Source: a bacterium
GTDB taxonomy: Bacteria; Sysuimicrobiota; Sysuimicrobiia; Sysuimicrobiales; Segetimicrobiaceae
Assembly (NCBI GenBank): GCA_035280345.1
Contig: DATEGA010000074.1
Span: forward strand, 6,664 to 70,663
Length of the DNA stretch: 64,000 nucleotides
Direction: 5' to 3'
Shown here: positions 1 through 23,001 of the stretch, one piece after another
Layout of the letters: each line of letters begins with the position of its first letter
Numbering within the stretch: the first letter of the stretch is position 1
Position numbers and translations under genes: made by a program
The notes under the pieces: generated by a model
The model's database searches: none
What the model was told of the DNA's origin: nothing
The model's input: the letters and a program-made list of their open reading frames with translations, nothing else

Positions 1-1000
1 TCCGGTAGACGAGTTCGGCGAGGGCGCGGTTGGGGAGCCCGACGCGCGTCTTCGTGATCCACCGGACCCCATGCCGGCAGTGCGTGACCGCGGCCGCGTG
101 TTCCGCGTTTCGCTCGAGCACCCGCGCGATCTGCTCCTGAATGCCGAGGCTCGGGGAGCGCCACGCGTACTGCATCGCGGCAAAGCGTGGCGGCAGGTTG
201 TCGGAGGTGCACTGGCCGCCCACCATTAGGAACTCGTTGAGCGTCCAGGTGCCGGTGTGCGGAAACATCGCTTCCTTTAAATACTTGCTCGTAGTGTACA
301 TCAGGCAGACCGCATCGAGGGCCCCGGGACACCGCGCGGTCGCGTGGGAGTGGCGAACCGGCATCAGCCCGTGGTCCGTCCACGTCTCCGGGGCGTCGCA
401 ATCGAACGAGTACTGGGCGCTCCAATACGAGCCGCACTGCGTGTCCCAGGCGACCGTGTTGTTCGGGTTCGGGTGAAACGCGACGTAGGCGTCCGCGCCG
501 TCGTAGTAGCCCTTCGCGGCGTGCACCGGCTTCGAGCCGCAGACTTTCTCGGCCGGCTCTCCGAAGAACCGGAGCGTCCCCCGCAACCCGTGCTTTTGCA
601 TCGCCGCCTTCGCCGCGAGCACGCCGGTCAGGCCGGCGACGCCGAGGGCGGAGTGCGGGTCCGTGTGTCCGGCCGCGTACGGGTTGAGGCCTTCGCGCGG
701 CGCCCGATAAGCTACCGGCTGTTGCGAGTTCTCGGGGACAGCGTCGTACTCGGCGTAGGTGCCGAGCACCGGCCGCCCCTCGCCGAACGTGGCGTAGAAT
801 GCGGTCGGCATGCCGCCGCTGCCCTCCTCGACGTGAAAGCCTTCCGCCCGAAGGAGTTCGCAGTAGGCGCGCGCGGATTTGTATTCGCGCCACGCCGGTT
901 CGGCGTACCGCCAGATCTCCTCGCAAAAGCGCGAGAGTCGCGGCCTGTTCGCCTCCACCCAGGCGAGCGCGGTCTCTTTTTCCGGCAGTCTCTGTGCCAT
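1..1000 (-). CDS. M20-family amidohydrolase (AbgB/aminoacylase-like); C-terminus lies beyond the left window edge
   Basis: Absent from the supplied track because it has no in-window stop. Minus-strand ATG at 998-1000 follows SD GGGGAGGA. My translation is MAQRLPEKETALAWVEANRPRLSRFCEEIWRYAEPAWREYKSARAYCELLRAEGFHVEEGSGGMPTAFYATFGEGRPVLGTYAEYDAVP..., open to position 1. This N-terminal layout is typical of M20D amidohydrolases. Confidence 0.6.
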   Translation of the reverse strand, partial: MAQRLPEKETALAWVEANRPRLSRFCEEIWRYAEPAWREYKSARAYCELLRAEGFHVEEGSGGMPTAFYATFGEGRPVLGTYAEYDAVPENSQQPVAYRAPREGLNPYAAGHTDPHSALGVAGLTGVLAAKAAMQKHGLRGTLRFFGEPAEKVCGSKPVHAAKGYYDGADAYVAFHPNPNNTVAWDTQCGSYWSAQYSFDCDAPETWTDHGLMPVRHSHATARCPGALDAVCLMYTTSKYLKEAMFPHTGTWTLNEFLMVGGQCTSDNLPPRFAAMQYAWRSPSLGIQEQIARVLERNAEHAAAVTHCRHGVRWITKTRVGLPNRALAELVYR

Positions 1001-1012
1001 CGCGTCCTCCCC

Positions 1013-1888
1013 TCAGGAGCCACCCGTCTCGACCGGTCCCAATAGCAGCCGGCGGGCGTTGTCGCGCAGGACTTTGGGCCGTACCGTCTCTTTGACGGCG
1101 AGCGCAGCGAAGTCCGACATCCAACGCTCCGGCGTGAGAAACGGCCAGTCGGAGCCGAAGAGACATTTATCCTGCAGCGGGCCGTTCATCTGCTCGACCA
1201 GTTCCGCGGGGAAATACTTCGGCGACCAGCCGGACAGGTCGATGAAAACGTTGGATTTGTGGCGGGCGATCGCCAGCTGCTCCGCCTGCCACGGCCAGCC
1301 GGGATGCGCCAGGATGATCTGCAGCGACGGGAAGTCCGCGGCGACGTCGTCCACCAGCATCGGATTCACGTACTTGAGCTTGTAGCCTCCGCCGCCCGGC
1401 TCGCCGGCACCGCTGCCCATCGTGCCCGAGTGAAAAAGACAGACCAGGCCCATCTCCGCGGCCGCCGCCCAGAGCGGGTAGACCCGCTCGTCGTTTGGCG
1501 CGAACTTCTGCAGCCCGGGATGCAGCTTGAGCCCCCGCAGCCCCAGCCTCTCGTGAGCGCGGCGCGCTTCGTCCACGGCCTGCTGTCCCTTCCGCGGATC
1601 GACGCCGGCGAAGCCCAGGAACACGTCCGGATGGGCGCGCACCGCCGCGGCAATGTGATCGTTTGGGACCGGCGGGTGCCCCGACGCGGTGGACGTGTCC
1701 ATACCGAGCAGCACCGCCCTCATCGTGCGGGCCCGGTACTGCTCGGCGAGCTCGTCGATCGAGACCGTCGGAATCTCACGCCCGAAGTACCTGGCCATCG
1801 CCGCGATCTCGTCGCCGAAGACGCCGCGCGCCTCCGCGCTCATTGGATGAACGTGGACATCGATCGCCACGATGTCGTCAGGCGACAT
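1013..1888 (-). CDS. Amidohydrolase_2 (TIM-barrel metal-dependent hydrolase/decarboxylase) family protein
   Basis: Track ORF 1013..2122 trimmed to the ATG at 1888 (MSPDDIVAIDVHVHP...). HxH motif near the N-terminus and later LHPG, AHPG and GSDWPF motifs. The upstream gene's TAG stop lies 1 nt before this ATG (TAGCATG), suggesting coupling. Confidence 0.8.
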   Translation of the reverse strand: MSPDDIVAIDVHVHPMSAEARGVFGDEIAAMARYFGREIPTVSIDELAEQYRARTMRAVLLGMDTSTASGHPPVPNDHIAAAVRAHPDVFLGFAGVDPRKGQQAVDEARRAHERLGLRGLKLHPGLQKFAPNDERVYPLWAAAAEMGLVCLFHSGTMGSGAGEPGGGGYKLKYVNPMLVDDVAADFPSLQIILAHPGWPWQAEQLAIARHKSNVFIDLSGWSPKYFPAELVEQMNGPLQDKCLFGSDWPFLTPERWMSDFAALAVKETVRPKVLRDNARRLLLGPVETGGS

Positions 1889-1889
1889 G

Positions 1890-2879
1890 CTACAGAGGGA
1901 GGAGCGTTCCGAGGCCTCGCGCCTTCGCGCGCTCGTAGATCGGAACCGCAAGCGCGATGTCGCAGGCGGCGATGCCGAGCGGCAGCACGAGAATCCGCTC
2001 GCGATCCGTCGTCCGGCCGGGTGCGCGGCCGAGCAGCACCTCGCCGATCTCCGCGGCGACCGGTGGCACGCCCGACGCGTATCGTCCGAGCACCTCGGGG
2101 CCGGCGAAGGGCTTCCGGTCATCGACCAGCACGCGATCGACCCGGTAGAGGATAGACGCCTCCTTGCCGCCGTTGTCGAGCACGACGACGGTCACTCCGG
2201 CCTTCAACCACTCGATATCCAGCAGGGGCGTCGTCGTGTTCGTCGTGACGGTGACGACGGCGTCCGCGTCGCGCACCGCCTCTTCCCGGTTCGCCGTGGG
2301 CGTGAGGGCCGGCCCGACGCGCCCCGCCATCTCGGCGCAGAGGCGCTCCGCAGAGTGGGCCTCGCGGCCGACGACCCAAATCCGGACCAGCGACGGCAGC
2401 ACCTGCGGCAGCACCTCGAGATGCGAGCGCGCCTCGACACCGGCGCCGACGATCGTCGCCACCGACGCGGTCGGCCTCACGCACACGCTGAGGGCCAGCG
2501 CGGTCACCGCGGCCGTGCGCACCGCGGTCACAACGGTCCCGTCCATGATCGCGAGCGGCATCCCGTTCGCCGGGTCGTTGAGCACGATGACGCCCGGCAC
2601 GGTGGGCAGGCCGCGCGCTTTATTGTTGGGAAAATCGGCGAGCCATTTGATTCCGAGCCCGCGGCCGTCCGGCAGCAGCGCCGGCATCGCATGGGCGTGG
2701 CGTGCGCCCGGCGGATGAACGCCGAATTTCGGCGGGACTTCGGCCCGGCCTTCCGAGATCCACACGAGCGCGTCGCGAATGCATGCGAAGCGTTCTTCGA
2801 GCGGCGGCAGCGCCGCCGTCACGTCGTCGCGCGACAGCCACAGTAGCGGGGCGCCGTCCCCGCGGCGCGGCTCAGCCAT
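1890..2879 (-). CDS. Ornithine cyclodeaminase / mu-crystallin family protein
   Basis: 329 aa. Rossmann segment VATIVGAGVEARSHLE and overall OCD-family layout (GIKW..FPNN, TAVRTAAVTA). The ATG overlaps the upstream stop by 8 nt (ATGGCTGA). Confidence 0.85.
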   Translation of the reverse strand: MAEPRRGDGAPLLWLSRDDVTAALPPLEERFACIRDALVWISEGRAEVPPKFGVHPPGARHAHAMPALLPDGRGLGIKWLADFPNNKARGLPTVPGVIVLNDPANGMPLAIMDGTVVTAVRTAAVTALALSVCVRPTASVATIVGAGVEARSHLEVLPQVLPSLVRIWVVGREAHSAERLCAEMAGRVGPALTPTANREEAVRDADAVVTVTTNTTTPLLDIEWLKAGVTVVVLDNGGKEASILYRVDRVLVDDRKPFAGPEVLGRYASGVPPVAAEIGEVLLGRAPGRTTDRERILVLPLGIAACDIALAVPIYERAKARGLGTLLPL

Positions 2880-4257
2880 CCCGCCGAAGGAGACGGGTAA
2901 GCTCCGTCACATCGGGCACTTCCTCGAGCCGGCGCACCATCCCGGTGATCTCGTCCCGCCGGCGCGGGCTGATCAAGTCGGCGGTCAGGCGCGCGAACTT
3001 GTGGTCCAATTCATCGCGCGACAGGGGCCGCTGCGGCGAGCCCTTCGGATACGTCACGTCCCGCGTGTACCGGCCGGCGGCTGTTTCCACTTCGATGATG
3101 GAACGGTACAGATCCGGATAGGTGCGGTCCAGTTCCTTGTCGCCGACGACGCTCACGCGCTCGGACAGCGCCCGGATGCCCGGATCGCTGCGCCGGTCAT
3201 GCAGGATGTCGTCGAAGTCGACGGCGCCCTTGTGCGCCGCGAGCGCCAGCACGTACTGCGCGCAGTGCGACCGCAGCGCGTTGCCGTCGATCACCTGGTA
3301 GCCGCCCGCGGGATATCGAAGCGTGATCCGGCGGATGTCGCCCGCGCGCACGCGTTCCTGCTCCATGATCTCGAACAGCCCGTCGAGTCCCGGATGGATA
3401 AACGCGCAGCACGCATACTGCTTGATCGCGATCTCCGTCACCTTGAAGGTGTCGCCGAGCCCCTGGAAGAGCGCGCTTTCATCCCACTGTCCGGTGAAGG
3501 CGTGGCCGAGCGGATACTTGCCGTCGAAGATCGCCGGCGGACCGCCGAACCCGCACGATGCCAGATGCGCGGCGAACACGCCGTGGCGGGACGCGAGGCC
3601 CATATTGTAGGGACGGGAGTGCTCCGTCTCGTCGCTCACCCACGCGAGCAGGCCTGAGGTCTCCGTGCCGGCGAGGCCGAACGCGTGCCGCAGCGCGGGT
3701 CCCTGGAGCCCGTAGAGCCGCGCCGCCGCGGCGAGGGAGCCGTAGGTCCCGGCGACGCACGTCGGGTGGAAGCCGCGCGCGTACAGCGCGGCGCCGCCGA
3801 GCGCGTAGCTCAGCCGGCACGCGGCGTCGATGCCGACGACGATCGCGGCCACTACGTCCCTGCCGGAGCGGTGCATTCGCTCGCCGACCGCGAGCGCCGC
3901 CGGCCCCACGACCGCGATCGCGTGCATGATCGCGCCGGCGTGGTGGCTTTCGATGTCGCAGTAGTAGCCGAACGTCCCGTTGACGAGCGCCGCCGTGGCG
4001 CAGTTGGTGCGCAGGTCGGTCCCAAAGACCTGCGCCTCGGGCGTCCCGCCCGTTTCCTGCACGAACCGCCGGAGCACGCCCCCGATGTCGTAGCGCGGGG
4101 ACGTCGCGGACAGCAGCGCCCCGAGACCGTCGTGGAGGATCTCTTTGGTGCGGTCGACGACCTCCGCGGGGATGCGCTCGTACGGGAACGTCTCCACCCA
4201 CCGCGCGAACCGGTCGGTCATGTTCGTCTGCGCCGCCCGGCTCGACAGTGCCGTCAC
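2872..4257 (-). CDS. MmgE/PrpD family protein (paralogue 3 of tandem trio)
   Basis: 461 aa. Contains FPYERIPAEVVDRTKEILHDGLGALL and GFHPTCVAGTYGSLAAAARLYGL, both typical PrpD-family blocks. GTG start has SD GGAGGGGG 6 nt upstream and a GTGA overlap with the upstream stop. ATG at 4221 is an alternative start. Confidence 0.85.
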   Translation of the reverse strand: MTALSSRAAQTNMTDRFARWVETFPYERIPAEVVDRTKEILHDGLGALLSATSPRYDIGGVLRRFVQETGGTPEAQVFGTDLRTNCATAALVNGTFGYYCDIESHHAGAIMHAIAVVGPAALAVGERMHRSGRDVVAAIVVGIDAACRLSYALGGAALYARGFHPTCVAGTYGSLAAAARLYGLQGPALRHAFGLAGTETSGLLAWVSDETEHSRPYNMGLASRHGVFAAHLASCGFGGPPAIFDGKYPLGHAFTGQWDESALFQGLGDTFKVTEIAIKQYACCAFIHPGLDGLFEIMEQERVRAGDIRRITLRYPAGGYQVIDGNALRSHCAQYVLALAAHKGAVDFDDILHDRRSDPGIRALSERVSVVGDKELDRTYPDLYRSIIEVETAAGRYTRDVTYPKGSPQRPLSRDELDHKFARLTADLISPRRRDEITGMVRRLEEVPDVTELTRLLRRDG

Positions 4258-5699
4258 CGGCCCCCTCCGAGGGACGGTGAGGCGGGACGCTTTGGTTCAC
4301 GCCGCAGGCCGGCACCGGCGTCGCCGGACACCTGCAAGAGCGCCGCGATCTGGCCGACGTCCGCGACGCGATCGAGACGGAACACGAGTTCCATGAGACG
4401 CGTCGCCGCGCTCCGGGAGATGCGCGTCGTCGCGAGGTCCATGAACTTCTGCTCCAGTTCCGCCTTCGTCATCGGGTTGTCGCGCCGCCCCTTCGCGTCG
4501 TCCACCCGCGCCGTCAGCGTCCGCCCGTCCCGGGTCGCGACGTCGACCACGGCCGGCGCGTGGGCGGGCCAAGGGTCCATGGCGGCGTCGCCGACCAGCC
4601 GCACGCGGTTGGAGAGCGACTTGATCCGCGGGTCGGCCCGGCGGTCTTCGAGAATGTCGGCCGATTCGATTTTCCCGCGGACCGCGGCCACCGCCATGAT
4701 GTACTGCGCGCAGTGCGACTTGAGCGGGTTGTTGTCGATCACCGGCGCCCGGTCGGCCTTCACCCGGTGCACGATCGCGGCGATGTCGTCGGACCCGATC
4801 CGGTGGTCGTCGAGAATCGACAGCAGCGCGTCGATACCGGTGTGGATGTCCCCACAGCAGGGGTGCCGCTTGTAGCCGTAGTGCTGCGTGATCCAGAGCG
4901 CCTCGCCGAGGCCGTCGGTCACGCGGTCGAGGTGCATCTCGCCGGCGTAGGCGTCGTAGATGCTGTACTTGCCACCGTCGAGGATCGCGGGCGGTCCGCC
5001 GAAGCCCATCTGCGCCAGCAGCGCCGCCGTCACGCCGCCGCGCGCCGCCATTCCGATGACGAGGGGCCGCGAGTTCTCGGTCGGATCGTCCACCCAGGTC
5101 ATGAGGCCGGTGGCGTTGCTGCCGGCGATGCCGAGGGCGTTCGCGAATCTCGGCTGGTCGAGCCGCAGCAGATGCGCCGCGGTCGCCGCCGCGCCAAAGT
5201 ATCCGAACACCGCCGACGGGTGAAACGAGTGCGGGTATGAGTACTCGGTCCGGCAGGCTTCGCCCGCCCGGCTGCAGATCTCGTAGCCGACCGTGAGCGC
5301 CGCAAGCAGCGCCTTGCCGTCGGCATGCTCCCGCTCCCCGACGGCAAGCGCCACCGGGACCAGCACCGCCGGCACATGCTGCCGGGCGACGCTCGCGCCT
5401 TCGATGTCCGCCGCATAGCCCATCGTGCCGTTCGCCAGCGCCGCGCTCTCGACCGGCGCCTTGAAGTCGCGGCCGATCACGGTGGACTCCGGCGTACCAC
5501 CGGCGCGCCGGGCGAGCTCGCCGGTGAGCCACGACGCGGTGTATTGTGGCGCCGAGCCGAGCAGCAGCGCCCCCAGCGTGTCAAGGACCACCATCTTCGC
5601 GTCGGCGGCCGCGGCCGCGGGCAGATCCGCGAACGTGAACCGCGTGGCGTACGCGGTCAGCGCCGCGGTCGGACCGTGCCCTGCGTCCTGCGTCGGCAT
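4254..5699 (-). CDS. MmgE/PrpD family protein (paralogue 2)
   Basis: Track ORF 4254..5837 trimmed to the ATG at 5699 (MPTQDAGHGPTAALTAYATRFTFADLPAAAAADAKMVVLDTLGALLLGS), SD GAGGAG about 8 nt upstream. SFHPSAVFGYFGAAATAAHLLRL block present. Confidence 0.85.
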   Translation of the reverse strand: MPTQDAGHGPTAALTAYATRFTFADLPAAAAADAKMVVLDTLGALLLGSAPQYTASWLTGELARRAGGTPESTVIGRDFKAPVESAALANGTMGYAADIEGASVARQHVPAVLVPVALAVGEREHADGKALLAALTVGYEICSRAGEACRTEYSYPHSFHPSAVFGYFGAAATAAHLLRLDQPRFANALGIAGSNATGLMTWVDDPTENSRPLVIGMAARGGVTAALLAQMGFGGPPAILDGGKYSIYDAYAGEMHLDRVTDGLGEALWITQHYGYKRHPCCGDIHTGIDALLSILDDHRIGSDDIAAIVHRVKADRAPVIDNNPLKSHCAQYIMAVAAVRGKIESADILEDRRADPRIKSLSNRVRLVGDAAMDPWPAHAPAVVDVATRDGRTLTARVDDAKGRRDNPMTKAELEQKFMDLATTRISRSAATRLMELVFRLDRVADVGQIAALLQVSGDAGAGLRREPKRPASPSLGGGR

Positions 5700-5730
5700 C
5701 CTGCGGCTCCTCTCGAATGGCTCCCAGCGT

Positions 5731-7089
5731 TTAGCGCCCGGCGGCGAGGCAGCGCGACAGCACGCCGCAATCCTCGAGGGTGTCGAGCTCCCCGGCGAGG
5801 CGCTCGATCTCGTCGAGCTCGAGGTCGGGCACGACATGGCTCGCCAGCGTCCGAAACTTCGCCCGGAGGTCCACCGTGCTCAGCGCGTTCTCGGGGTCGC
5901 CGGTCGGATAGTACACGGTCTCGGTGAACTCCCGTCCGTCCGTAGTCTTGACGGTCGTCACGCCGGACCACTGCTCCGGGAAGCGCTTTTCGAGCTCGTC
6001 GCTGCCGAGCACCCGGACGCGCTTCGAGAGCGCGGCGATGCGGGTATCCTCGAGGCGCCGGCCGTCGAGCTGGTCGACACCGACCCTGCCGTCGTACGCC
6101 GCGACGGCGAGCACGTACTGCGCGTTGTGCGACGGCAGTTCGTTGTTGTCGATGATGTCGGCCATCGAGGTCGCGACGGTAGTCTCGATCGCGGCGATCT
6201 GGTCGGCGTGCACGCCCCGGCCCATGATGGTGAACAGACCGTCAAGCGGCGCGTGAATCTGACGGCATGCCGCGTACTTCTTCAGACTTGTCCGCATCAG
6301 TTCGAACCGCTCGCCGAGCCCGTCGGTCAGCGCCGGGATCTGGCCGTCCGGGAGCCCGCTGAACGCGCGGAACAGGTTGTGCTTGCCTTCGAGGATGTGC
6401 GGGGGGCCGGTGAACCCGATCTCGGCGAGCTGCGCGGCGGTCACGCCATTGCGCGAGGCGATGCCGATCTGGAACGCCTTGCTGAGCTGCGAGACCTCGG
6501 TGACCCAGGCGAGCAGGCCCGACGCCTGGCACCCGGCGAGACCGAACGCGTCCACCATCTGTCCCGGCTCGAGCCGCAGCATGCGGCCGGCCGCGGCGGC
6601 CGCGCCAAAGTTGCCGTCGATCGACGACGGGTGAAACGACCGCGCGTACAACCGGACGGGGTCGAGCGCGATCCCGATCCGGCCTTCGACGTCGTAGGCG
6701 GCGACGAGCGCCGCGATCAGGTCGCGTCCGTTCGCGCGGCGCGCCTCGCCGATCGCCAGCGCCGCGGGTAGGACGACATTGGCTACGTGCGCGTTGGCCG
6801 GATTGTAGTTATCGTCCTGCTCGAGGCAGTGCGACATCGTCGCGTTGGCGAACGCCGCCGCGACGGGCGAGACGCGCAGCGCGGAACCCGCGACCGTACA
6901 GTGCCCCGACTCGCCGAGACCGGCGGTGTACTCCGTGACGAGCCGGCCTGCGGGATACCGGGATCCGCCGAGCAGGGTCCCGAGCGTGTCCAAAACCAGG
7001 TCCTTCACCCGCGCGACGACCGCCGCCGGGAGATCCTCATAGCGAAGACCGCTCGCGTAAGTCGCGAGCCGTTCGGTAACGCCGGACAT
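5731..7089 (-). CDS. MmgE/PrpD family protein (paralogue 1)
   Basis: 452 aa. MSGVTERLATYASGLRYEDLPAAVVARVKDLVLDTLGTLLGGS and SFHPSSIDGNFGAAAAAGRMLRL blocks. SD AGGAGG lies 6 nt upstream of the ATG. Confidence 0.88.
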   Translation of the reverse strand: MSGVTERLATYASGLRYEDLPAAVVARVKDLVLDTLGTLLGGSRYPAGRLVTEYTAGLGESGHCTVAGSALRVSPVAAAFANATMSHCLEQDDNYNPANAHVANVVLPAALAIGEARRANGRDLIAALVAAYDVEGRIGIALDPVRLYARSFHPSSIDGNFGAAAAAGRMLRLEPGQMVDAFGLAGCQASGLLAWVTEVSQLSKAFQIGIASRNGVTAAQLAEIGFTGPPHILEGKHNLFRAFSGLPDGQIPALTDGLGERFELMRTSLKKYAACRQIHAPLDGLFTIMGRGVHADQIAAIETTVATSMADIIDNNELPSHNAQYVLAVAAYDGRVGVDQLDGRRLEDTRIAALSKRVRVLGSDELEKRFPEQWSGVTTVKTTDGREFTETVYYPTGDPENALSTVDLRAKFRTLASHVVPDLELDEIERLAGELDTLEDCGVLSRCLAAGR

Positions 7090-7107
7090 CTGGTGCCTCC
7101 TATCGCT

Positions 7108-8466
7108 CTACATCGCGCTCGCGAGCTCGCCGAAGAGCCGCGCCGTGAACTCTACGCCGGCGCAGTAGTCGCCGACCTTGATGCCCTCGTCGGGCGCGTG
7201 GAACTGCGACTCGGCCGACCCCATGCCGGCGTTGATGAGCGGGATCCCGAGCGGATCCGCCAGCTCATGATACGGCGCCCCGATCCAGGGCGCCACGGGG
7301 TAGATCGCGGGGGCGGTGTGGTAGAACTCGCGACCCGTCCGGATGATCGCGTCGACCATCGGGTGGTCGAGCGGCACTTTGCCCGGATACCGCTCGCTCA
7401 GCGGCCGCAGGGTGATGCCGCCGAATCCGTGCGCGTCGAGGTGCCGGCGGAGCAGGCCTTCCATCTTGCCGGGGTCCTGGTTCGGGACGAGGCCGAACCG
7501 CACCACGCCGACCGCGCGCCGCGGGATCCCGCGCGCGCCCGCATCGTAGGTCCGGCCCGCGCCGAGCCCCGAAACCTCGAGCGTCGGTTCGAAGAGCAGG
7601 CGCCGGATGGCGTCGCGGCCGCGGACGTCGAGCGTCAGCGTCGACAGCCCGAGCCGGCGCTTTAGGCCCTCACCGTCGAAGCGCAGGTCGTCCAGCAGCT
7701 TGAGTTCGGCGTCCGTCGGCCGGACGGCGTCGTCGTAGAAGCCAGCGATCGTCACCCGCTCGTCGGGTGCCTTCATGCCCGCGAACGCCCACACGATCTC
7801 CCACGCCGGGTTCGGCACCACCGACGTCAAGCTGCTGTGGAACGTCTGTCTCGCGCCGATCCGCTCCATCTCGAACAAGATGCGGCCGCGGCACCCGAGG
7901 CTGATCGTCGGCCGCCCGAGGTCGTCCCGGCCGCCGCCCTCCCCGAGCGCGCCGTCCGCCCGCAGCAGATCGCGGTTCGCCAGCACCAGGTCGCGCAGGT
8001 GCGGGCTGCCCAACTCTTCCTCGCCGTCGATCACAAACTTGACCGTGAGCGGCAGTGTCCCGTACGCCGCGCGCCAGGCGTCGACCGCGCAGAGCCGCGC
8101 CGCCAGTTCGCCCTTGTTGTCGCTCGCGCCGCGCGCGATGAGCCGCCCCTCGACGATCTCGGCCCCAAACGGGGGGCGGGTCCACGCATCCAGCGGCTCG
8201 GCCGGCACCACGTCGTAGTGGTTATAGAGAAGGAGAGTCTTAGTAGACGCGCCTGGGATCGTGGCGACGATCAACGGCGGCGATCCCGCAGCCTCGCGGA
8301 GTGCGGTCTCCGCGCCGAGGTCGCGCAGCAGATCCGTCAGAAAAGCCACGGCGTCCGGGACCGCCTGCCCCGAGACGCTTGGGATCCGCAAGAACCGCCG
8401 GAGCGTCTCGACGTAGCGGCTGCGGTGGCGTTCGACCTGACCGTGGAGCGCGTCCGCAGCCGTCAT
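7108..8466 (-). CDS. M20 family metallopeptidase (dipeptidase / ArgE-DapE-CPG2-like)
   Basis: Track ORF trimmed to the ATG at 8466 (MTAADALHGQVERHRSRYVETLRRFLRIPSVSGQ), SD GAGGAG upstream. Contains LLLYNHYDVVPA, ARGASDNKG and IDGEEELGSPHL, which are the M20 metal-ligand blocks. Confidence 0.85.
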   Translation of the reverse strand: MTAADALHGQVERHRSRYVETLRRFLRIPSVSGQAVPDAVAFLTDLLRDLGAETALREAAGSPPLIVATIPGASTKTLLLYNHYDVVPAEPLDAWTRPPFGAEIVEGRLIARGASDNKGELAARLCAVDAWRAAYGTLPLTVKFVIDGEEELGSPHLRDLVLANRDLLRADGALGEGGGRDDLGRPTISLGCRGRILFEMERIGARQTFHSSLTSVVPNPAWEIVWAFAGMKAPDERVTIAGFYDDAVRPTDAELKLLDDLRFDGEGLKRRLGLSTLTLDVRGRDAIRRLLFEPTLEVSGLGAGRTYDAGARGIPRRAVGVVRFGLVPNQDPGKMEGLLRRHLDAHGFGGITLRPLSERYPGKVPLDHPMVDAIIRTGREFYHTAPAIYPVAPWIGAPYHELADPLGIPLINAGMGSAESQFHAPDEGIKVGDYCAGVEFTARLFGELASAM

Positions 8467-8482
8467 TCGCGACGCACGCTCC

Positions 8483-9376
8483 TCATAGGCGCAGCCTCGG
8501 GTCCAGTGCGTCATGCAGTCCGTCCCCAACCAGGTTCACCGCGAGCACGGTCAGCGCGATCGCCACGCCGGGGAACGTGCTGATCCACCATGCGTTTTGG
8601 AGATAGTCGCGTCCCTGCGCAAGAATCAGGCCCCACTCCGGTGTCGGCGGCTGCGCGCCCATGCCGAGGAAGCTGAGTGTGGCGGCCGTCAGGATCGCGA
8701 CGCCGACGTTCAGTGTGCCGAGAATCAGCGCCGGCCCGTAGATATTGGGCAGGATGTGCCGCACGGCAACGCGCGCCTCGCTGCAGCCGCCGGCCCGTGC
8801 CGCCTCCACATAGACGTTCTCGCGGGCGGACAGCACGCAGCCCCGCACGAATCGTGTGAACCGCGGGATGCTGGCGACGCCGACGGCGAGCACGACATTC
8901 GAGAGCGCCGACCCGAGCGCCGCCGCGATCGCGAGCGCAAACAAGAGCGTCGGCACCGCCAGCATGACGTCGACGCCGCGCATGATGACCGTGTCCGCCC
9001 ATCCGCCCCGGTAGCCGCTGATGAGCCCGAAGACTACGCCGCCGGCAAGCGTCAGCGCGCTCGCCGCCAGGCCCACGGCCAGCGAGATTCGCGCGCCCGC
9101 GAGGACGCGGCTGAACAGGTCCCGGCCGATCTCGTCGGTACCCATCCAATGGCGGGAAGCGGGGGCCGCGAACACCTCCTCCGGCGACGGCTGCGTCGGC
9201 GAATACGGGCTCACGAGCGGAGCCAGCAGCGCCGCGGCGGCCACCACCCCGAGCAGCCCCGCCCCGAGCACGGCTTTGCGGTTGCGCCGGAACCGCCGCG
9301 CGACCTGCGTCATGCCTGACCGCGGTGTGGCGGCCGCACCGCCCGGCATGCCGGGAGCGGCCAGCGCTTCAGCCAT
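8483..9376 (-). CDS. ABC transporter permease, DppC/OppC-like
   Basis: Contains HWMGTDEIGRDLFSRVLAGARISL and the EAA-type loop YVEAARAGGCSEARVAVRHILPN. Start is ambiguous: ATG at 9388, 9376 or 9313. ATG 9376 overlaps the upstream stop by 8 nt. Confidence 0.85.
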   Translation of the reverse strand: MAEALAAPGMPGGAAATPRSGMTQVARRFRRNRKAVLGAGLLGVVAAAALLAPLVSPYSPTQPSPEEVFAAPASRHWMGTDEIGRDLFSRVLAGARISLAVGLAASALTLAGGVVFGLISGYRGGWADTVIMRGVDVMLAVPTLLFALAIAAALGSALSNVVLAVGVASIPRFTRFVRGCVLSARENVYVEAARAGGCSEARVAVRHILPNIYGPALILGTLNVGVAILTAATLSFLGMGAQPPTPEWGLILAQGRDYLQNAWWISTFPGVAIALTVLAVNLVGDGLHDALDPRLRL

Positions 9377-10301
9377 GAGCGGCGGCATCCCGGATGCGCG
9401 GATCGAGGTAGCCGTAGGACACGTCCACGAGCATGTTGGCCAGGACGTAGCCGCACGCCGCGACCAGCAGCGCCGACTGCAGCGCGGGATAGTCGCGATA
9501 CGTAATCGACTCGACGATGAGGCGTCCGAGGCCCGGCCGCGCGAACACCGTTTCCACGACGACCGTCCCCGACAGCAGGTTGCCGAGCTCGACGCCCACG
9601 ATCGTGACGACCGGAATCAGCGAGTTGCGCAGCGCGTGCTTGAGCACGACGAGCCGCGGCGGCAGGCCCTTCGCCCGCGCCGTCACGACGAACTCTTGAT
9701 GAAGCGTCTGCACGAGGCTCGACCGCGCGAGCCGGCTGATCACACCGGTGCTGTACAAGCCCAGCGTGACCGCCGGCATGATCAATTGCTGCCAGCCCGA
9801 GCCCGTCGTTACGGGCAGCCACCCCAGCCAGAGCGAGAACACGAAGATCAGCATCAGCGCGAGCCAGAAGCTCGGGATGGACACCCCGGAGAGCGCCGCG
9901 ATCGTGCTGAGGTTGTCGAGCCAGCCGTGAGGACGCAGCGCGGCGAGCGTCCCCAGCGTCACGCCGAGCGCCACGGCAATGCCGAGACCGACAAGCGCGA
10001 GCTCGAGCGTGGACGGCAGGACCTTCTCGATCAGCCGCCCCACCGGCTCGCCGTACCGGATCGAACGGCCCAGCCGGCCCTGGGCGAGCGACCCGAGGCT
10101 GTCCGCGTACTGCCGCCAAAGCGGGCGGTCAAGACCGTACTGGTGGCGCAGCGACTCCAGCTGTGACTTCGAGGCGCTGCCCTCCGAAATCATGAGCGCC
10201 GGATCGGACGGGAGCACGTGCAGCACGATGAAGATCAGCGTGTACACCCCGAGCAGGGCCGGCAGCGTGCTCAGCACGCGCCGGCCCGCGAACTTCAGCA
10301 C
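9369..10301 (-). CDS. ABC transporter permease, DppB/OppB-like
   Basis: 310 aa, GTG start. N-terminus MLKFAGRRVLSTLPALLGVYTLIFIVLHVLPSDP. Contains FVVTARAKGLPPRLVVLKHALRN and ends YGYLDPRIR. Confidence 0.9.
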   Translation of the reverse strand: MLKFAGRRVLSTLPALLGVYTLIFIVLHVLPSDPALMISEGSASKSQLESLRHQYGLDRPLWRQYADSLGSLAQGRLGRSIRYGEPVGRLIEKVLPSTLELALVGLGIAVALGVTLGTLAALRPHGWLDNLSTIAALSGVSIPSFWLALMLIFVFSLWLGWLPVTTGSGWQQLIMPAVTLGLYSTGVISRLARSSLVQTLHQEFVVTARAKGLPPRLVVLKHALRNSLIPVVTIVGVELGNLLSGTVVVETVFARPGLGRLIVESITYRDYPALQSALLVAACGYVLANMLVDVSYGYLDPRIRDAAAHG

Positions 10302-10358
10302 GGCCGTCTAGGGTCGCAGCGGCCCCCCGCGGGATTGGCCTCCGGCGTCGTCACGCCC

Positions 10359-12020
10359 TCACGACTGAAGCCACGCGTCCTGGAAGTAGGGATACCAGGA
10401 CCGCGCGTCCATATGGAAGTCCTTGACCGCCGCGTCCGTCACCCAGACGAACAGTGTGATGTAGATCGGCACCACGTACCCCTGCTCGAGTATGCGGCGG
10501 GTCGCCTTGGAAACGAGGGCGAAGCGCGCCTTCCGGTCGATTGTTGAGTCCTGTTCGGCGAGGAGCTGGTCGAGCTCCGGGTCCTTGTTCATCGCCCAGG
10601 AGAAGCTGCCCACGTTCTTCGACGCGAAAAGATCCACGAGATAGTGCGGGTCGCTCGCTTCGAACTCCCGATTGATCAGATGGTACAGGCCCTTGCTGCC
10701 CGCCACCGTCCGGTCGGCCGGCGTGCCGGCGATCAGTTTGGTCTCGAAGCCGACGGCCTGCAGCATCGTCAGCATCAGCTGCTTGTAATTCTCGGTCATG
10801 AAGCCGCTGGTGAACACGTCCAGGTGCAGCGGCTGGCCGTCCTTCGCACGCACGCCGCTCGGGCCGCGCTTCCAGCCCGCTTCCTCCAGCAGTTGCTTCG
10901 CCTTCTCGGGGTTGAACGAGTACAGGTGGTCGAGCGCCGGGTCATAGCCGAAGCTCGTCGGGCCGATCAGATTCCACGTCGGCCGCGCGAAGCCGGGATA
11001 GAAGACCTTGACGATCGTGTCTTTGCTGATCGCGTAGTTGATCGCCTGCCGGACGGCCGGCTCGTTCGTCGGCGGCTTCTGCGTGTTGATGAAGTTGAAC
11101 CAAGTGGTCCCCGGCGAGACGCCGCGGTACAGCGCGAAGCGCGAGTCGTGCTCCCAGTCCCGGAGGCGCAGCGGGCCGGGCCACGCCTCAATACGCAGTT
11201 CTTTGCGGGCGCTCATCAGTCCGTCGCGTGTACCCTGCTCCGGCACGAACTTGAACGTCAGCTTATCGAGGTGCGGCGGCCCCGCATTCGTCTTGCCGGG
11301 GAATACCGTGCCCCACTTGTAGTTGGGGTTGCGCGCCAGCGTGATAAGCGTGTCGCGCGCCCACTCGACGAACGTGAAGGGCCCCGTACCGACCAGATGG
11401 TTCTGAAAGTCCAGGCCGTACTTCTTCACCGCCGCCGGTGACGGGATGCCGAGATAGCCCTGGCTCAGCGAGTCCCAGATCGGGGCGAACGGCTCCTTCA
11501 GCCGCAGCTGCACCGTGTGGTCATCCATAACCACGGTCGAGTCGTATGGACCGAGCAGCGACTTCGCGTACTGCGACTTCGTCGCCGGATCGACGCAGCG
11601 ATCGAAGTGGAGCTTCACGGCCTCGGCGTTGAAGTCCGTGCCGTCGTGGAACTTCACGCCCGGGCGAAGCTTGAACGTGATTTGCGTGCCGTCTTTGGAC
11701 GCCGTCCACGACGTCGCGAGACCGGGATAGATGTTGAGGTCGTTGCCGAGGTAGACGAGCGAGTCGAAGATCATCTGCGTGACCATCGTCTCGGGCGGAC
11801 CCCAGTAGACGGCCGGATCGAGCTTGTCGAGCGTCCGGTACATGCCGATCGTAAGTTCGCCGCCCGGGCGCGGTGTCTCCGCGGCCGCGGCGGCCGTGCG
11901 CAGCAGCGGCCCGCCGGACTCGCCGAGCGCGGACAGCGGGAGTGCGGATCCCGCGCCGGCCGCGAGTAGTTTGAGCAGCGAGCGGCGCGACAGGTGCGAC
12001 GCCTTACTGTGTTTGGGCAT
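10359..12020 (-). CDS. ABC transporter substrate-binding protein, family 5 (peptide/nickel/opine type), TAT leader
   Basis: 553 aa. Twin-arginine leader HLSRRSLLKLLAAGAGSALPLSALG. Family-5 blocks LDPAVYW, LATSWTASKDGTQITFKLRPGVKFHDGTDFNAEAV and GTGPFTFVEW. Confidence 0.9.
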   Translation of the reverse strand: MPKHSKASHLSRRSLLKLLAAGAGSALPLSALGESGGPLLRTAAAAAETPRPGGELTIGMYRTLDKLDPAVYWGPPETMVTQMIFDSLVYLGNDLNIYPGLATSWTASKDGTQITFKLRPGVKFHDGTDFNAEAVKLHFDRCVDPATKSQYAKSLLGPYDSTVVMDDHTVQLRLKEPFAPIWDSLSQGYLGIPSPAAVKKYGLDFQNHLVGTGPFTFVEWARDTLITLARNPNYKWGTVFPGKTNAGPPHLDKLTFKFVPEQGTRDGLMSARKELRIEAWPGPLRLRDWEHDSRFALYRGVSPGTTWFNFINTQKPPTNEPAVRQAINYAISKDTIVKVFYPGFARPTWNLIGPTSFGYDPALDHLYSFNPEKAKQLLEEAGWKRGPSGVRAKDGQPLHLDVFTSGFMTENYKQLMLTMLQAVGFETKLIAGTPADRTVAGSKGLYHLINREFEASDPHYLVDLFASKNVGSFSWAMNKDPELDQLLAEQDSTIDRKARFALVSKATRRILEQGYVVPIYITLFVWVTDAAVKDFHMDARSWYPYFQDAWLQS

Positions 12021-12046
12021 TGCCGATCACACCCCCCAATGTGTGT

Positions 12047-12058
12047 GACGGTACCGTC
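12047..12058. promoter_or_regulatory. Perfect 12-bp palindrome GACGGTACCGTC in a divergent promoter region (candidate operator)
   Basis: Read directly. Symmetric around 12052/12053. Lies 27 bp from the minus-strand SBP start (12020) and about 130 bp from the plus-strand SBP start (12188). Confidence 0.35.
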
Positions 12059-12187
12059 TGACCGCATTCCACGTCACCAGGAGGAGGCCCTGTGCGCGCC
12101 AGGGCAGGAGGCGGCGCGCGCCGGAGGGAACCATCGCGTCTGTCAAGCCCTCGATCGCGCACGCCCACACCAAAAGGAGGAATCGTC

Positions 12188-13882
12188 TTGCCCGAGGATC
12201 GCACCGCGTTTCCCTGGCACGACTACTACGGTCGTGGCCTGATTACCAGGCGGCAGCTCGTCAAGCTGACGGCGATGATCGGTGGGGCCGCCGCGGTGTC
12301 AACGGTCCTGTCCGACTCGAGGCCGGCACACGCGGCACTCGCCCCGGCGGCCAAGCAGGTGCTGCGGTATCCGAACGTTGAGCCGCTGAACTTCGATCCC
12401 GCGACGATGGAGTCGCGGCCGGAGATCCTCGTGGGCATGGCCCTGTTCGATCCACTGCTCACGTTCGACGACAGCGGAACCGCCGTCCCGGTGGCGGCGC
12501 GGTCCTGGAACGTCTCGAAGGATGGGCTGACCTACACTTTCCACCTCCGGTCGGGCATGCAGTGGTCCGACGGTCACCCGGTCCAGGCCTCCGACTACGA
12601 ATACGCGTGGAAGCGCGTCGTGGACCCGGACATCGCCAGCGACTACGCGTCGGCGTTCTACCCGATCAAGGGCGCCCTCGACTACAACAAAGGCAAGACC
12701 AAGGACAAGAACACGATCGCGATCAAAGCCGTCGACGCCCAGACCCTGCGGGTGGGGCTGACCGAGCCGGCGGCGTATTTCCCGCGCCTCGTCTCGACCT
12801 GGAACTACCTGCCCGTACCCCGCTGGTCGGTGGAGAAGAACGGCAAGAAGTGGGTCGACGCCGGCAACCACGTCGGCAACGGCATGTTCATGCTCCAGAA
12901 GTGGGACCACGACCGGGAGATGGTCATCGTCGCCAACCCGCGGTACTGGGGAACGAAGCCGACGCTGCAGCGCGTCGTGTTCACGATCACCGACGACACG
13001 TTCCGCACCAGCCTGCCGGCGTTCGAGAACAACGAGCTCGACCTCACCGATCAGATCCAGCCCGGCGACATCGACCGCGTGCGCAAGGATCCGAAGCTCG
13101 CCGCGCAGCTGCACAAGTACCGGTGGTCCGGCACCGCGATGATGTTCTGTGACACCACGAATCCCGCCTCACCGCTCAGCAAAGCGAGAGTCCGGCAGGC
13201 GTTCTACCTCGCGATCGACCACCAGCGGATCGCGCGGGACGTGCTGCGCGGGATCTACGACCCGGCGCCGACGATCACGCCGCCCGGGACGCTCGGGTAT
13301 CTCTCCACCCCTCCCCTCACGGGCGGTGTCGCGAAAGCGAAGCAGCTTCTGGCCGAAGCGGGCTACCCGGACGGCAAGGGATTCCCGGACATGAAGCTTG
13401 CCTGGCCGAAGCTCGTGACGTACGACCTGCTCGCGCAGGCGATGCAGCAGATGCTGCGCGAGACGCTCAACGTGAACATCACGCTGCAGCGTATGGAGCG
13501 CAAGGAGTATAACGCGGCCTTCAACTCGTGGGGGAAGCAGCCCTACACGGCCTTCATCGACCGCTGGGGGTCGGACTACGAGGACCCGGCCAACTGGGCC
13601 AACATCCTCTTCGACTCGGATCAAGACTTCTTCCACACCCGCTGGAAGAACGCCGAGTACGACAGCCTGGTCCGGAAGGGCTCTGCCGAGGCCGATCCCG
13701 CCAAGCGCCGGCAGCAGTACGAATCGGCGGAACGCATCCTCAATACCGAGCTGCCCGCGATTCCGCTCTACCATCTCGGCGTGATCATTGCGGTCAAGCG
13801 GACAGTTCAAGGGTTCCGGCTTCCGCCGGCCGCCGCGGCCTGGTACGGCACGTTCGGCCGCGTGAAGATTCTGGCCGGGTAA
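12188..13882 (+). CDS. ABC transporter substrate-binding protein, family 5, TAT leader
   Basis: Track ORF 12092..13882 trimmed to the TTG at 12188 (SD AAAGGAGG, 7-nt spacer). Codons 12092-12187 show many A/T third positions, unlike the coding regions. Leader ITRRQLVKLTAMIGGAAAVS...AHA. Contains SWNVSKDGLTYTFHLRSGMQWSDGHPV. Confidence 0.88.
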   Translation: MPEDRTAFPWHDYYGRGLITRRQLVKLTAMIGGAAAVSTVLSDSRPAHAALAPAAKQVLRYPNVEPLNFDPATMESRPEILVGMALFDPLLTFDDSGTAVPVAARSWNVSKDGLTYTFHLRSGMQWSDGHPVQASDYEYAWKRVVDPDIASDYASAFYPIKGALDYNKGKTKDKNTIAIKAVDAQTLRVGLTEPAAYFPRLVSTWNYLPVPRWSVEKNGKKWVDAGNHVGNGMFMLQKWDHDREMVIVANPRYWGTKPTLQRVVFTITDDTFRTSLPAFENNELDLTDQIQPGDIDRVRKDPKLAAQLHKYRWSGTAMMFCDTTNPASPLSKARVRQAFYLAIDHQRIARDVLRGIYDPAPTITPPGTLGYLSTPPLTGGVAKAKQLLAEAGYPDGKGFPDMKLAWPKLVTYDLLAQAMQQMLRETLNVNITLQRMERKEYNAAFNSWGKQPYTAFIDRWGSDYEDPANWANILFDSDQDFFHTRWKNAEYDSLVRKGSAEADPAKRRQQYESAERILNTELPAIPLYHLGVIIAVKRTVQGFRLPPAAAAWYGTFGRVKILAG

Positions 13883-13887
13883 GCACC

Positions 13888-13927
13888 GCGGGACGCCGCG
13901 CCGGTTCCGCCGGGCGCGGCGTCCCGC
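13888..13927 (+). promoter_or_regulatory. Intercistronic stem-loop: 15-bp perfect stem, 10-nt loop, no U-tract
   Basis: GCGGGACGCCGCGCC (13888-13902) pairs perfectly with GGCGCGGCGTCCCGC (13913-13927). Starts 5 nt after the SBP stop and ends 18 nt before the permease GTG. Confidence 0.6.
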
Positions 13928-13945
13928 TCCAATCGTCCCCGCCTC

Positions 13946-14872: not shown

Positions 14873-14878
14873 CCGCCC

Positions 14879-18449: not shown

Positions 18450-18513
18450 CGCGCGGCCCTCCCCGTTATCGTCTCTGCCGCCGGATGGCACGTCGCTTAC
18501 GACGGCATTCCGG

Positions 18514-19462: not shown

Positions 19463-19470
19463 GCCTCAGG

Positions 19471-21114: not shown

Positions 21115-21150
21115 GCCGGTCCCTCCCCGTGGGGCTCCCACCCCGGTTTT

Positions 21151-22047: not shown

Positions 22048-22052
22048 CACGC

Positions 22053-22982: not shown

Positions 22983-23001
22983 CGCGCGCCGCCCGCGGGC
23001 C

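Follow-up and report, generated by a model that had tools for sequence, protein, structure and literature searches.

We analyzed a stretch of bacterial DNA of 64 000 nucleotides (the window), part of the 77.5-kb ENA metagenome contig ERZ27257086 k141_2594504 (locus L001; window coordinate = 17090 − L001 coordinate), of which positions 1–12020 carry a minus-strand gene cluster combining an importer with three proteins of the MmgE/PrpD family. From 5' to 3', its ten genes encode a family-5 solute-binding protein (SBP5, or SBP), two permeases (PermB and PermC), a metallopeptidase of the M20 family (M20A), the three MmgE/PrpD proteins (PrpD1, PrpD2 and PrpD3), an enzyme of the OCD/mu-crystallin family (OCD), a protein of the PF04909 family (Amidohydro_2) and a second M20-family protein (M20B). 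Independent gene calls on contig L001 agree on all ten. The ten genes form a real uptake-and-breakdown operon of an uncultured high-GC soil bacterium; the cluster is an orphan catabolic operon that follows known operon logic throughout, and not a new type of system.

Gene content and packing of the operon

An earlier reading, made from the letters of the DNA without database searches (the sequence-only reading), had described an importer-linked block of ten tightly spaced minus-strand genes and had assigned each of them to a family. The block is as described: the genes of SBP5 and of the two permeases stand at its head, overlaps between genes occur, and Pfam recovers every family that had been named, the match of M20B being weak (Table 1). 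The junction strings quoted in that reading are all present in the sequence. TAGCATG (TAG-C-ATG) is the junction of OCD and Amidohydro_2, ATGGCTGA occurs twice, at the PrpD3/OCD and PermB/PermC junctions, and GTGA is the PrpD2/PrpD3 junction; the remaining intergenic gaps measure 12–57 nt. The third-position GC of the coding frames is 0.84–0.91.

Two starts were corrected, that of Amidohydro_2, which gives the protein listed in Table 1 instead of a 369-amino-acid open reading frame, and that of PrpD2, now placed at position 5699 behind the ribosome-binding site GAGAGGAG. M20B is cut by the edge of the window, with only its 5' 333 codons inside, and is complete on L001, where a convergent Ogt gene lies directly beyond it; because this next gene is convergent, the operon ends at M20B. 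A scan for promoters and terminators found no sigma-70 consensus anywhere in 1–12300 and terminator-like matches at chance level only, so that the operon boundaries rest on gene spacing and on the convergent downstream gene.

Table 1. Features of the operon and of the adjacent intergenic region, in window coordinates.
Feature	Position	Strand	Evidence
SBP5, family-5 solute-binding protein, 553 aa, first operon gene	10359..12020	-	Pfam SBP_bac_5 6e-78
PermB, DppB/NikB-type permease, 310 aa	9369..10301	-	Pfam BPD_transp_1 + BPD_transp_1_N 2e-42
PermC, DppC/NikC-type permease, 297 aa, start overlaps PermB stop (ATGGCTGA)	8483..9376	-	BPD_transp_1 + OppC_N 2e-32
M20A metallopeptidase, carboxypeptidase/aminoacylase type, 452 aa	7108..8466	-	Pfam Peptidase_M20 1e-24
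PrpD1, H-type MmgE/PrpD, 452 aa	5731..7089	-	Pfam MmgE_PrpD_N + MmgE_PrpD_C
PrpD2, Y-type MmgE/PrpD, 481 aa	4254..5699	-	Pfam MmgE_PrpD_N + MmgE_PrpD_C
PrpD3, Y-type MmgE/PrpD, 461 aa, GTG start overlaps PrpD2 stop	2872..4257	-	Pfam MmgE_PrpD_N + MmgE_PrpD_C
OCD/mu-crystallin family NAD(P) enzyme, 329 aa	1890..2879	-	Pfam OCD_Mu_crystall 6e-50
Amidohydro_2 (PF04909) TIM-barrel metalloenzyme, 291 aa	1013..1888	-	Pfam 1e-53
M20B, divergent M20D-type amidohydrolase, last operon gene (527 aa full length)	1..1000	-	Pfam Peptidase_M20 3e-06
Intergenic region, presumed promoter region, between the operon and a divergent second SBP5 importer operon (12188–15835, plus strand)	12021..12187	.	Gene calls

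Family placement and catalytic residues of the MmgE/PrpD proteins

All three PrpD proteins belong to the MmgE/PrpD family by both of its domains (PF03972 and PF19305), scoring 174–231 bits for the N domain and 112–119 bits for the C domain against a cut-off of 32.1, with MmgE_PrpD Pfam E-values of 1e-51 to 2e-68. Their pairwise identities over the full length are 38.5, 39.3 and 40.3%, whereas PrpD2 and PrpD3 have nearer relatives in other lineages (53–55% and 45–50%, respectively). They are thus old paralogs, as the sequence-only reading had proposed, and a recent tandem duplication was rejected on the same grounds. Among solved structures, PrpD1 is closest to cis-aconitate decarboxylase (CAD, 6e-34, its top match) and iminodisuccinate (IDS) epimerase (6e-30), with true PrpD only at 1e-5; PrpD2 matches IDS epimerase at 3e-30 and CAD at 4e-30, and the best match of PrpD3, in a residue-by-residue alignment, is IDS epimerase (5e-30). 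PDB entries of PrpD itself are matched by the copies only at E = 1e-5 to 2e-7 (28–34 bits), and all three are about equidistant, at about 90–120 bits, from IDS epimerase, CAD and the Bacillus subtilis protein named IRG1, the first two lying at about 100–120 bits. The nearest described members of the family are IDS epimerase and CAD, not true PrpD.

To map the catalytic columns, we aligned the proteins with mouse IRG1 and IDS epimerase in HMMER and with their orthologs in MAFFT. At the positions equivalent to residues 85, 88, 90, 91, 99, 145, 150, 198, 266, 271 and 275 of IDS epimerase, the latter reads HDDDHYHKKCH, PrpD1 HEDDHYHKKCH, PrpD2 YDEGHYHRKCH, PrpD3 YDESHYHRKCH and mouse IRG1 HDDDHIHKKHH. 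PrpD1 (H87, E90, H101, Y148, H153, K204, K270, C275 and H279, invariant in 17 orthologs) has the IDS-epimerase set H85/D88/H99/Y145/H150/K198/K266 together with C271/H275 (2HP3 numbering), the sole change being the conservative replacement of D88 by Glu. PrpD2 (Y95, D98, H108, Y155, H160, R211, K277, C282 and H286) and PrpD3 (Y98, D101, H112, Y159, H164, R215, K279, C284 and H288) retain H99, Y145, H150, K266, C271 and H275, and have Tyr in place of His85 and Arg in place of Lys198. We refer to the two kinds of signature as H-type and Y-type. Every signature is conserved within its own orthogroup and the His/Tyr pair is present in all three copies. Comparison of the active sites, by which the sequence-only reading had meant to recognize inactive duplicates, found no copy that looks inactive, and we rejected the view that any of them is a dead duplicate.

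Every known substrate of the MmgE/PrpD family is built on a C4-1,4-dicarboxylate backbone, which conserved residues (His/Asp(Glu)/His/His/Lys/Lys) keep in place while a catalytic His acts at C2; an extra catalytic Tyr (Tyr145 of IDS epimerase, Tyr148 of the isomerase) belongs to the two-base epimerase and isomerase members, CAD being a one-base enzyme (PMC12290011, 2025). Read against these rules, the residue signatures point to a 2-substituted succinate unit as a candidate ligand and to chemistry of the epimerase type.

Conservation of the cluster

All ten proteins were mapped on 17 independent related loci from metagenomes and metagenome-assembled genomes (MAGs), and the counts given here refer to the loci reaching far enough. 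M20A lies immediately upstream of PrpD1 in 15/15 loci, PrpD2 lies immediately downstream of it in 13/13 (orthologs 70–92% identical), and the SBP–PermB–PermC genes are found upstream in every locus that extends to them (SBP orthologs 62–91% identical), PrpD1 itself being 64–87% identical to the window copy across the core-bearing loci. PrpD3 follows PrpD2 in eight of 11 loci and is followed by OCD in 7/7. In L005, PrpD3 has been relocated to the front of the operon, upstream of the SBP gene and overlapping its start; that it is kept with the importer in two gene orders argues for a functional link. PrpD3 is absent from L003 and L007, where other peptidases come after PrpD2.

Amidohydro_2 and M20B adjoin OCD in none of the relatives inspected. 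Beyond OCD, the loci L020, L023 and L024 first carry genes for a small VOC/glyoxalase protein, for an acetolactate-synthase-like thiamine pyrophosphate (TPP) enzyme and, convergent, for an aldehyde dehydrogenase, and only after these genes does Amidohydro_2 (with AroM) or a fragment of M20B appear. Orthologs of Amidohydro_2 (86–90%) occur in L020 and L023, 3.8–5.6 kb from OCD, and a single partial ortholog of M20B (83%) occurs in L024, not beside OCD. Given this pattern we read the unit as three tiers, namely an invariant six-gene core (SBP, two permeases, M20A, PrpD1 and PrpD2), a frequent PrpD3–OCD extension and a variable tail, of which the tail of the window is a compacted version. The set of three PrpD genes with OCD, amidohydrolase and M20 genes, whose conservation the sequence-only reading had left to be checked, is thus conserved in part: the core is invariant and PrpD3–OCD frequent, but the ten-gene set does not recur as such, Amidohydro_2 and M20B being loosely attached. 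The 64-kb window has no match to the genes located beyond OCD in the relatives, namely those of the TPP enzyme, L-piperidine-6-carboxylate dehydrogenase, VOC and AroM. The dehydrogenase is assigned from its copies in L023 (17343–18965) and L024 (15593–17341), which score 746 bits against the NCBIfam cut-off of 730 for the L-piperidine-6-carboxylate (aminoadipate-semialdehyde) dehydrogenase equivalog. This match hints at a lysine- or pipecolate-type branch in the relatives.

Orthologs of PrpD1 (61–95% identity) come only from metagenomes and from a few MAGs labeled "bacterium", "Bacillota" or "Firmicutes". A scan of GTDB species representatives with a PrpD1 profile returned only two true orthologous loci, both of them MAGs labeled Bacillota/Firmicutes. 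In an Acidobacteria-labeled MAG (CALMZP010000165, L012 1–1177), an M20A homolog (56%) precedes a PrpD1-like gene (57%) that breaks off after 100 codons, with unrelated convergent genes beyond it; decay to a remnant, transfer into another phylum, or an artefact of binning or assembly would explain this fragment, which is uninformative for the comparison. In a plasmid collection searched by tblastn with PrpD1 and PrpD3, matches were at most 40% identical and stood in unrelated contexts, with no link to opine plasmids: the neighbors of the Bosea and Rubrobacter matches are CoA transferases, acyl-CoA dehydrogenase and LysR, and the best match, from Shinella, adjoins a TPP enzyme and an amino-acid ABC system.

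The Y-type subfamily

About 75 of the 120 nearest database homologs carry the Y-type signature YDE[SGPA]HYHRKCH, which is absent from the alignable solved structures (IDS epimerase, mouse IRG1 and B. subtilis IRG1), all three of them H-type. PrpD3 is the window copy nearest to this widespread clade. We inspected seven Y-type neighborhoods, taken from metagenome contigs, from one contig with a protein labeled Nitrososphaerota by NCBI, and from Shinella; the loci noted are L013–L017, the P0059 locus, L035 (the plasmid-labeled Shinella replicon NZ_CP069303.1), L023 and L025. An acetolactate-synthase-like TPP enzyme is encoded within 10 kb in 7/7 neighborhoods and an OCD gene in 3/7. Asp/Glu-racemase-like, AroM and enolase-superfamily (MR_MLE) genes, GntR/FCD regulators and amino-acid-type importers are recurrent as well.

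The PrpD3–OCD(–VOC–TPP) stretch of the window's relatives represents the same association. Because of this agreement, PrpD3–OCD is best regarded as a module with a putative amino- or imino-dicarboxylate chemistry of its own, which the importer core has recruited. Literature searches, in which subscription journals were thinly covered, found no description of the Y-type class.

The importer

The transport genes have the architecture of the PepT family (Dpp/Opp/Nik), with an SBP_bac_5 protein and two BPD_transp_1 permeases, one of them with OppC_N. At its N-terminus (SHLSRRSLLKLLAAGAG...), the SBP bears a twin-arginine motif (SRRSLLK) but lacks a lipobox Cys. The protein stays under all NCBIfam cut-offs, its best model being NikA (187 of 393 bits), with CntA at 141 of 800, and its nearest PDB entries are 5u4o, GsiB/YliB (1uqw), NikA (4oer) and HbpA (3m8u). 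PermB scores 325 of 350 bits with the Staphylococcus aureus nickel permease Opp2B and 284 with GsiC, and PermC scores 285 with GsiD, 284 with Opp4C and 280 of 300 with Opp2C. The cut-offs of nickel and opine-metallophore importers (NikA-E, CntA-F) are thus approached by the permeases only, and the predicted transporter is intermediate among the Nik, Gsi and Dpp types.

Genes for ATPases of the DppD/DppF type were found neither in the operon, nor in its relatives, nor beside any of the seven SBP5 genes with permease pairs that the window contains (at about 10359, 12188, 19471, 27638, 34975, 53599 and 54917). The only ABC ATPase in the 64 kb is of the TOBE type (41940–43064) and is part of an SBP_bac_8 system. 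Seven importers without a Dpp/Opp-type ATPase gene must therefore share ATPases encoded elsewhere.

Hydrolases and the OCD enzyme

M20A scores 304 bits with PRK06446 and 239 bits with the dipeptidase model PRK08201. The nearest structure is that of the Sulfolobus carboxypeptidase Sso-CP2 (4mmo, 2e-70), a broad carboxypeptidase/aminoacylase, followed by carnosinase and the dipeptidases CNDP2 and Dug1, and the protein contains NHYD, GASDNKG, DGEEELG and FHAPDE, which we take to be the canonical metal-binding and catalytic motifs of M20 enzymes. M20B is far more distant from its relatives: it scores 110 bits with TIGR01891 against a cut-off of 154, and its only PDB matches are HmrA, YxeP and AbgB, at E = 7e-5 to 9e-4. 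It is a very divergent M20D protein, and its earlier label "AbgB-like" applies only remotely (AbgB, 9e-4; YxeP, 3e-4).

Amidohydro_2 has no NCBIfam match. The nearest solved structures are the uncharacterized Bordetella protein BB4693 (3irs, 6e-23) and then the non-oxidative 2,3-dihydroxybenzoate, gamma-resorcylate and 5-carboxyvanillate decarboxylases; since these are an uncharacterized protein and aromatic-acid decarboxylases, calling it an amide hydrolase is unsafe. The "three amide hydrolases" of the sequence-only reading are hence an overcount, the nearest solved PF04909 relatives being decarboxylases and an uncharacterized TIM barrel rather than amidases.

OCD belongs to PF02423 (171 bits against a cut-off of 24) and passes no equivalog cut-off, including those of the SbnB ACEGA dehydrogenase and of ornithine cyclodeaminase. 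Its best NCBIfam models are the SbnB family (159 of 327 bits) and archaeal alanine dehydrogenase (151 of 409), with ornithine cyclodeaminase at 77 of 350. The PDB matches are alanine dehydrogenase (1omo, 6e-35), pyrroline-2-carboxylate reductase (6t3e, 8e-34) and SbnB (4m54, 2e-29). By similarity, the protein groups with the putative dehydrogenase/imine-reductase type rather than with the cyclodeaminase type.

Proposed function and alternatives

We tentatively propose, with a confidence that falls somewhat short of even, that the operon imports and degrades a small peptide-like compound carrying a 2-substituted succinate unit, which the PrpD proteins would epimerize and M20A would cleave. Candidates for this unit are aspartyl groups, either C-terminal or N-acylated, and 1,2-dicarboxyethyl groups linked through N or S. 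The compound would enter through the Tat-exported family-5 SBP and the two permeases, powered by ATPases supplied from elsewhere in the genome. PrpD1 and PrpD2 would then act as separate, active, cofactor-free enzymes inverting or isomerizing the C2 stereocenter(s) of the succinyl unit by a His/Tyr two-base mechanism, as in IDS epimerase and methylsuccinate isomerase, after which the amide bond would be cut by M20A as a stereospecific carboxypeptidase/aminoacylase. PrpD3 and the OCD dehydrogenase/imine reductase may form an optional side branch acting on the released amino-dicarboxylate or secondary amine, and Amidohydro_2 (of a decarboxylase/lactonase type) and M20B are probably lineage-specific add-ons. 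Gene content, operon packing, the pattern of conservation and the catalytic-residue signatures are direct observations. We infer from them the sequence of import, inversion and cleavage, and with it the substrate class, the epimerase chemistry, the order of the steps and the separate action of PrpD1 and PrpD2; our grounds are the substrate rule that holds across the family, the His/Tyr signature, the constant presence of the peptidase, and the precedents of the yxe operon and of the enolase-superfamily operons.

Several points weigh against this proposal. The Tyr column is a correlate of epimerase chemistry and not its proof. A dehydratase, lyase or decarboxylase role of any copy is possible. 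PrpD2 and PrpD3 change two carboxylate-binding residues, and their ligand may therefore not be a plain 1,4-dicarboxylate. The transporter is as similar to nickel and metallophore systems as to peptide and glutathione systems, and the C-N lyase that is reportedly the partner of IDS epimerase in the IDS pathway is absent from the operon. Finally, the model leaves the invariant pairing of two epimerase-like genes unexplained. Among the substrates that the sequence-only reading had suggested, the opine, aminopolycarboxylate and citryl-amide classes are possible. Its statement that the gene set matches no described pathway agrees with our literature searches on PrpD with dipeptidase, PrpD with OCD, YxeQ and IDS epimerase, none of which, subscription journals being thinly covered, turned up a description of this gene set.

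An alternative is that PrpD1 and PrpD2 are the H-type and Y-type subunits of one obligate hetero-oligomer, which would be the first in the MmgE/PrpD family and would catalyze a single reaction (dehydration, decarboxylation or C-N/C-S elimination) with either the imported compound or its M20A product as substrate. Adjacency, order and short spacing of the two genes are invariant in 13/13 loci, the pair always unites two different signature types, and the solved members of the family are deposited as multi-chain homo-oligomers with two to six chains per entry. However, consecutive enzymes would give the same adjacency, both partners have full sets of catalytic-type residues that a scaffold subunit would not need, PrpD2-like proteins (53–55%) occur in other lineages without a PrpD1-type neighbor, and no PrpD–PrpD fusion is found among 120 homologs, all of about 450 amino acids; we consider the heteromer unlikely. 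We regard as improbable that the system imports a metal chelate or metallophore for recycling or degradation, either of the ethylenediaminedisuccinate (EDDS), aspergillomarasmine (AMA) or IDS type or an opine-type metallophore, in which case the PrpD proteins would epimerize N-(1,2-dicarboxyethyl) centers and the SbnB-like OCD would split the secondary amine oxidatively. The permeases come near the S. aureus Nik cut-offs, NikA is the best model of the SBP (CntA being matched too) and NikA proteins are among its PDB neighbors, SbnB is the best model of OCD, and no solved structure is closer to PrpD2 or PrpD3 than IDS epimerase, an enzyme with an aminopolycarboxylate substrate. Yet no model reaches its cut-off and GsiB, HbpA and DppA are as close to the SBP; the invariant core contains an amide hydrolase and not OCD, while compounds of the EDDS, AMA and IDS types are free of amide bonds; and the operon lacks an aspartase/fumarase-type C-N lyase, an opine oxidase and a metal-responsive regulator.

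An equally doubtful view is that the cluster is a mosaic without a single pathway, in which a general peptide importer and a dipeptidase stand beside unrelated small-acid enzymes, brought together by chance in a region of the genome rich in such modules. The variable 3' half of the operon in the relatives would fit it, as would the assorted enzymes accompanying the seven SBP5 importer modules of the window and the multi-PrpD clusters that are common elsewhere in varied contexts. Against it speak the six-gene core, whose overlapping or closely spaced genes are invariant at PrpD1 identities of 64–87%, the company that PrpD3 keeps with the importer in two arrangements, and the start/stop overlaps linking PrpD2, PrpD3 and OCD. 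Very little, finally, favors ordinary 2-methylcitrate dehydratases of propionate metabolism or cis-aconitate decarboxylases of itaconate synthesis, roles that we hold to be highly improbable even though homologs are annotated "2-methylcitrate dehydratase PrpD" in their source entries and CAD tops the PDB list of PrpD1. The copies score 25–39 bits with the PrpD equivalogs (TIGR02330, NF006943 and NF042438) against cut-offs of 458–950, and no prpB or prpC gene (methylisocitrate lyase, methylcitrate synthase) was seen among the annotated genes of the window, an annotation that is not exhaustive; a true PrpD role is effectively refuted. The CAD role was rejected as well; all copies carry Tyr and Cys where CAD has Ile154 and His277, and the context of importer and peptidase fits neither role.

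The most far-reaching possibility is one to which we give little credence. PrpD1 and PrpD2 might be the first MmgE/PrpD hetero-oligomer or a coupled pair of epimerase and C-N/C-S lyase, and would then give access to a pathway not described so far, for conjugates of natural origin that bear an N- or S-(1,2-dicarboxyethyl) group (succinated peptides or glutathione, EDDS- or aspergillomarasmine-type aminopolycarboxylates); in addition, the Y-type proteins (YDE-x-H-Y-H-R-K-C-H) might be a new and widely distributed enzyme class in Chloroflexota, Nitrososphaerota and Methylomirabilota, with a chemistry of its own and working with acetolactate-synthase-like TPP enzymes and OCD-family dehydrogenases. 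The likelihood that remains falls to chemistries outside all of these readings.

Other modules of the window and significance

A second importer operon with a PrpD gene lies at 46183–55584 on the minus strand and comprises, in this order, SBP5, two permeases, MR_MLE, PrpD4, a PLP-dependent (PALP) enzyme, an RraA-like aldolase and a GFO/IDH/MocA oxidoreductase. PrpD4 (49003–50505, 500 aa) is very divergent, being 27–28% identical to PrpD1–3, and has the signature NDDAHGRKKCR, without equivalents of Tyr145 and His150. Two plus-strand genes of the AstE/AspA family (succinylglutamate desuccinylase/aspartoacylase; 29178–30170 and 39778–40842) each stand beside an SBP5 importer, which suggests an organism specialized in N-acyl- or dicarboxylate-conjugated amino acids. 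The minus-strand module at 17628–23480 (SBP5, two permeases, a polysaccharide-deacetylase-family gene and SDR genes) is syntenic with positions 12721–19069 of L007 (JRHI01000280), where it neighbors the PrpD operon of a relative with 64% identity; both importer modules thus travel together across the lineage. Between two further SBP5 modules, 31941–35150 on the plus strand encodes a protein of 1058–1069 amino acids with BNR/Asp-box and Sortilin-Vps10 repeats.

MAGs contain a great many orphan catabolic operons of this general construction, and the architecture as such is unsurprising; its unusual part is the conserved pairing of two PrpD signatures. Only four or five chemistries are known in the MmgE/PrpD family. 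Their substrates are all 2-substituted succinates, and the most recent of them, that of methylsuccinate isomerase, dates from 2025. The operon is a lead for the discovery of enzyme function: its conserved and clearly delimited six-gene core joins both signature types to an importer and a peptidase, its Y-type residues define a large subfamily in which no solved or assayed member is known, and its candidate substrates are few and can be tested. If the epimerase-plus-hydrolase reading is true, bacteria would possess, besides the enolase superfamily, a second and cofactor-free fold with which to salvage aspartyl or dicarboxyethyl conjugates of scrambled stereochemistry from the organic matter of soils.

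Comparison with known systems

Among the closest characterized enzymes is IDS epimerase of Agrobacterium tumefaciens BY6 (PDB 2HP0/2HP3), which ranks first, alone or jointly, among the solved relatives of PrpD2 and PrpD3 and is close to PrpD1 (about 108 bits). PrpD1 carries the full complement of its proposed catalytic residues, with the second base Tyr145 and the pair Cys271/His275 among them. The enzyme acts on an N-substituted aspartate and thereby on a 2-substituted succinate, IDS itself being a synthetic chelator. Sequence similarity is remote, so that PrpD1–3 are not orthologs of it; PrpD2 and PrpD3 differ in His85 and Lys198, and the genes here stand with an importer and an M20 peptidase rather than with a C-N lyase partner. 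CAD (IRG1/ACOD1/CadA) shares with PrpD1 the equivalents of His103, His159, Lys207 and Lys272, but it works with one base, differs at Ile154 and His277 from all three copies, and is biosynthetic and not linked to an importer. The solved B. subtilis IRG1 (7bra, 445 aa), presumably YxeQ judging by its length, is H-type with Tyr and Cys, like PrpD1. The (S)-(R)-methylsuccinate isomerase (PA0881; Q0K3E6 in Cupriavidus necator) belongs to the same family and has the His/Tyr two-base logic and the carboxylate-binding hexad, which shows racemase-type chemistry to be recurrent in the family, with free 2-substituted succinates as substrates (PMC12290011). The gene of this isomerase belongs to clusters for itaconate degradation, where it is accompanied by genes for a CoA transferase, a hydratase, a lyase and an acyl-CoA dehydrogenase, none of which is among the ten genes here.

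At the level of whole operons, the Nik, Cnt, Gsi and Dpp systems of the PepT family share the SBP5 with two permeases, and the permeases lie 20–25 bits under the S. aureus Nik cut-offs, but no model is passed and ATPase genes are lacking in the operon and in its relatives. Opine catabolism of the Agrobacterium type is not represented either, there being no OoxAB-like DAO/FAD oxidase among the ten genes. The yxe operon of B. subtilis for S-(2-succino)cysteine (YxeK, YxeL, YxeMNO, YxeP and YxeQ) offers a precedent: it unites an ABC importer with the M20-family deacylase YxeP and with YxeQ, a member of the PrpD family whose function is unknown, and has a 2-substituted succinate as substrate (PMC9706529). 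No YxeK monooxygenase, 2SL lyase or YxeL acetyltransferase is encoded here, and the yxe operon differs further in its importer, of the polar amino-acid type instead of the Dpp/Nik type, and in having one PrpD gene instead of three. By the definition of a yxe-type cluster as at least three of YxeK/2SL, YxeL, YxeMNO, YxeP and YxeQ (PMC9706529), the operon qualifies with its PrpD proteins and the marginally YxeP-like M20B (E = 3e-4) only, and so falls outside. The logic proposed for the operon, in which a peptide-like compound is imported, inverted at an alpha-carbon flanked by an amide and a carboxylate, and cleaved by a stereospecific metallohydrolase, is that of the enolase-superfamily salvage operons, whose N-succinylamino-acid racemases and L-Ala-D/L-Glu dipeptide epimerases are reviewed elsewhere (PMC8142540). 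The enzymes differ, being metal-dependent with a Lys/Lys pair there and candidate cofactor-free proteins of the PrpD fold here. In such operons the racemase or epimerase is reportedly paired with an M20 hydrolase, or with peptidases and a Dpp importer. By analogy, the operon would work most like an epimerase-plus-hydrolase salvage operon equipped with catalysts resembling IDS epimerase.

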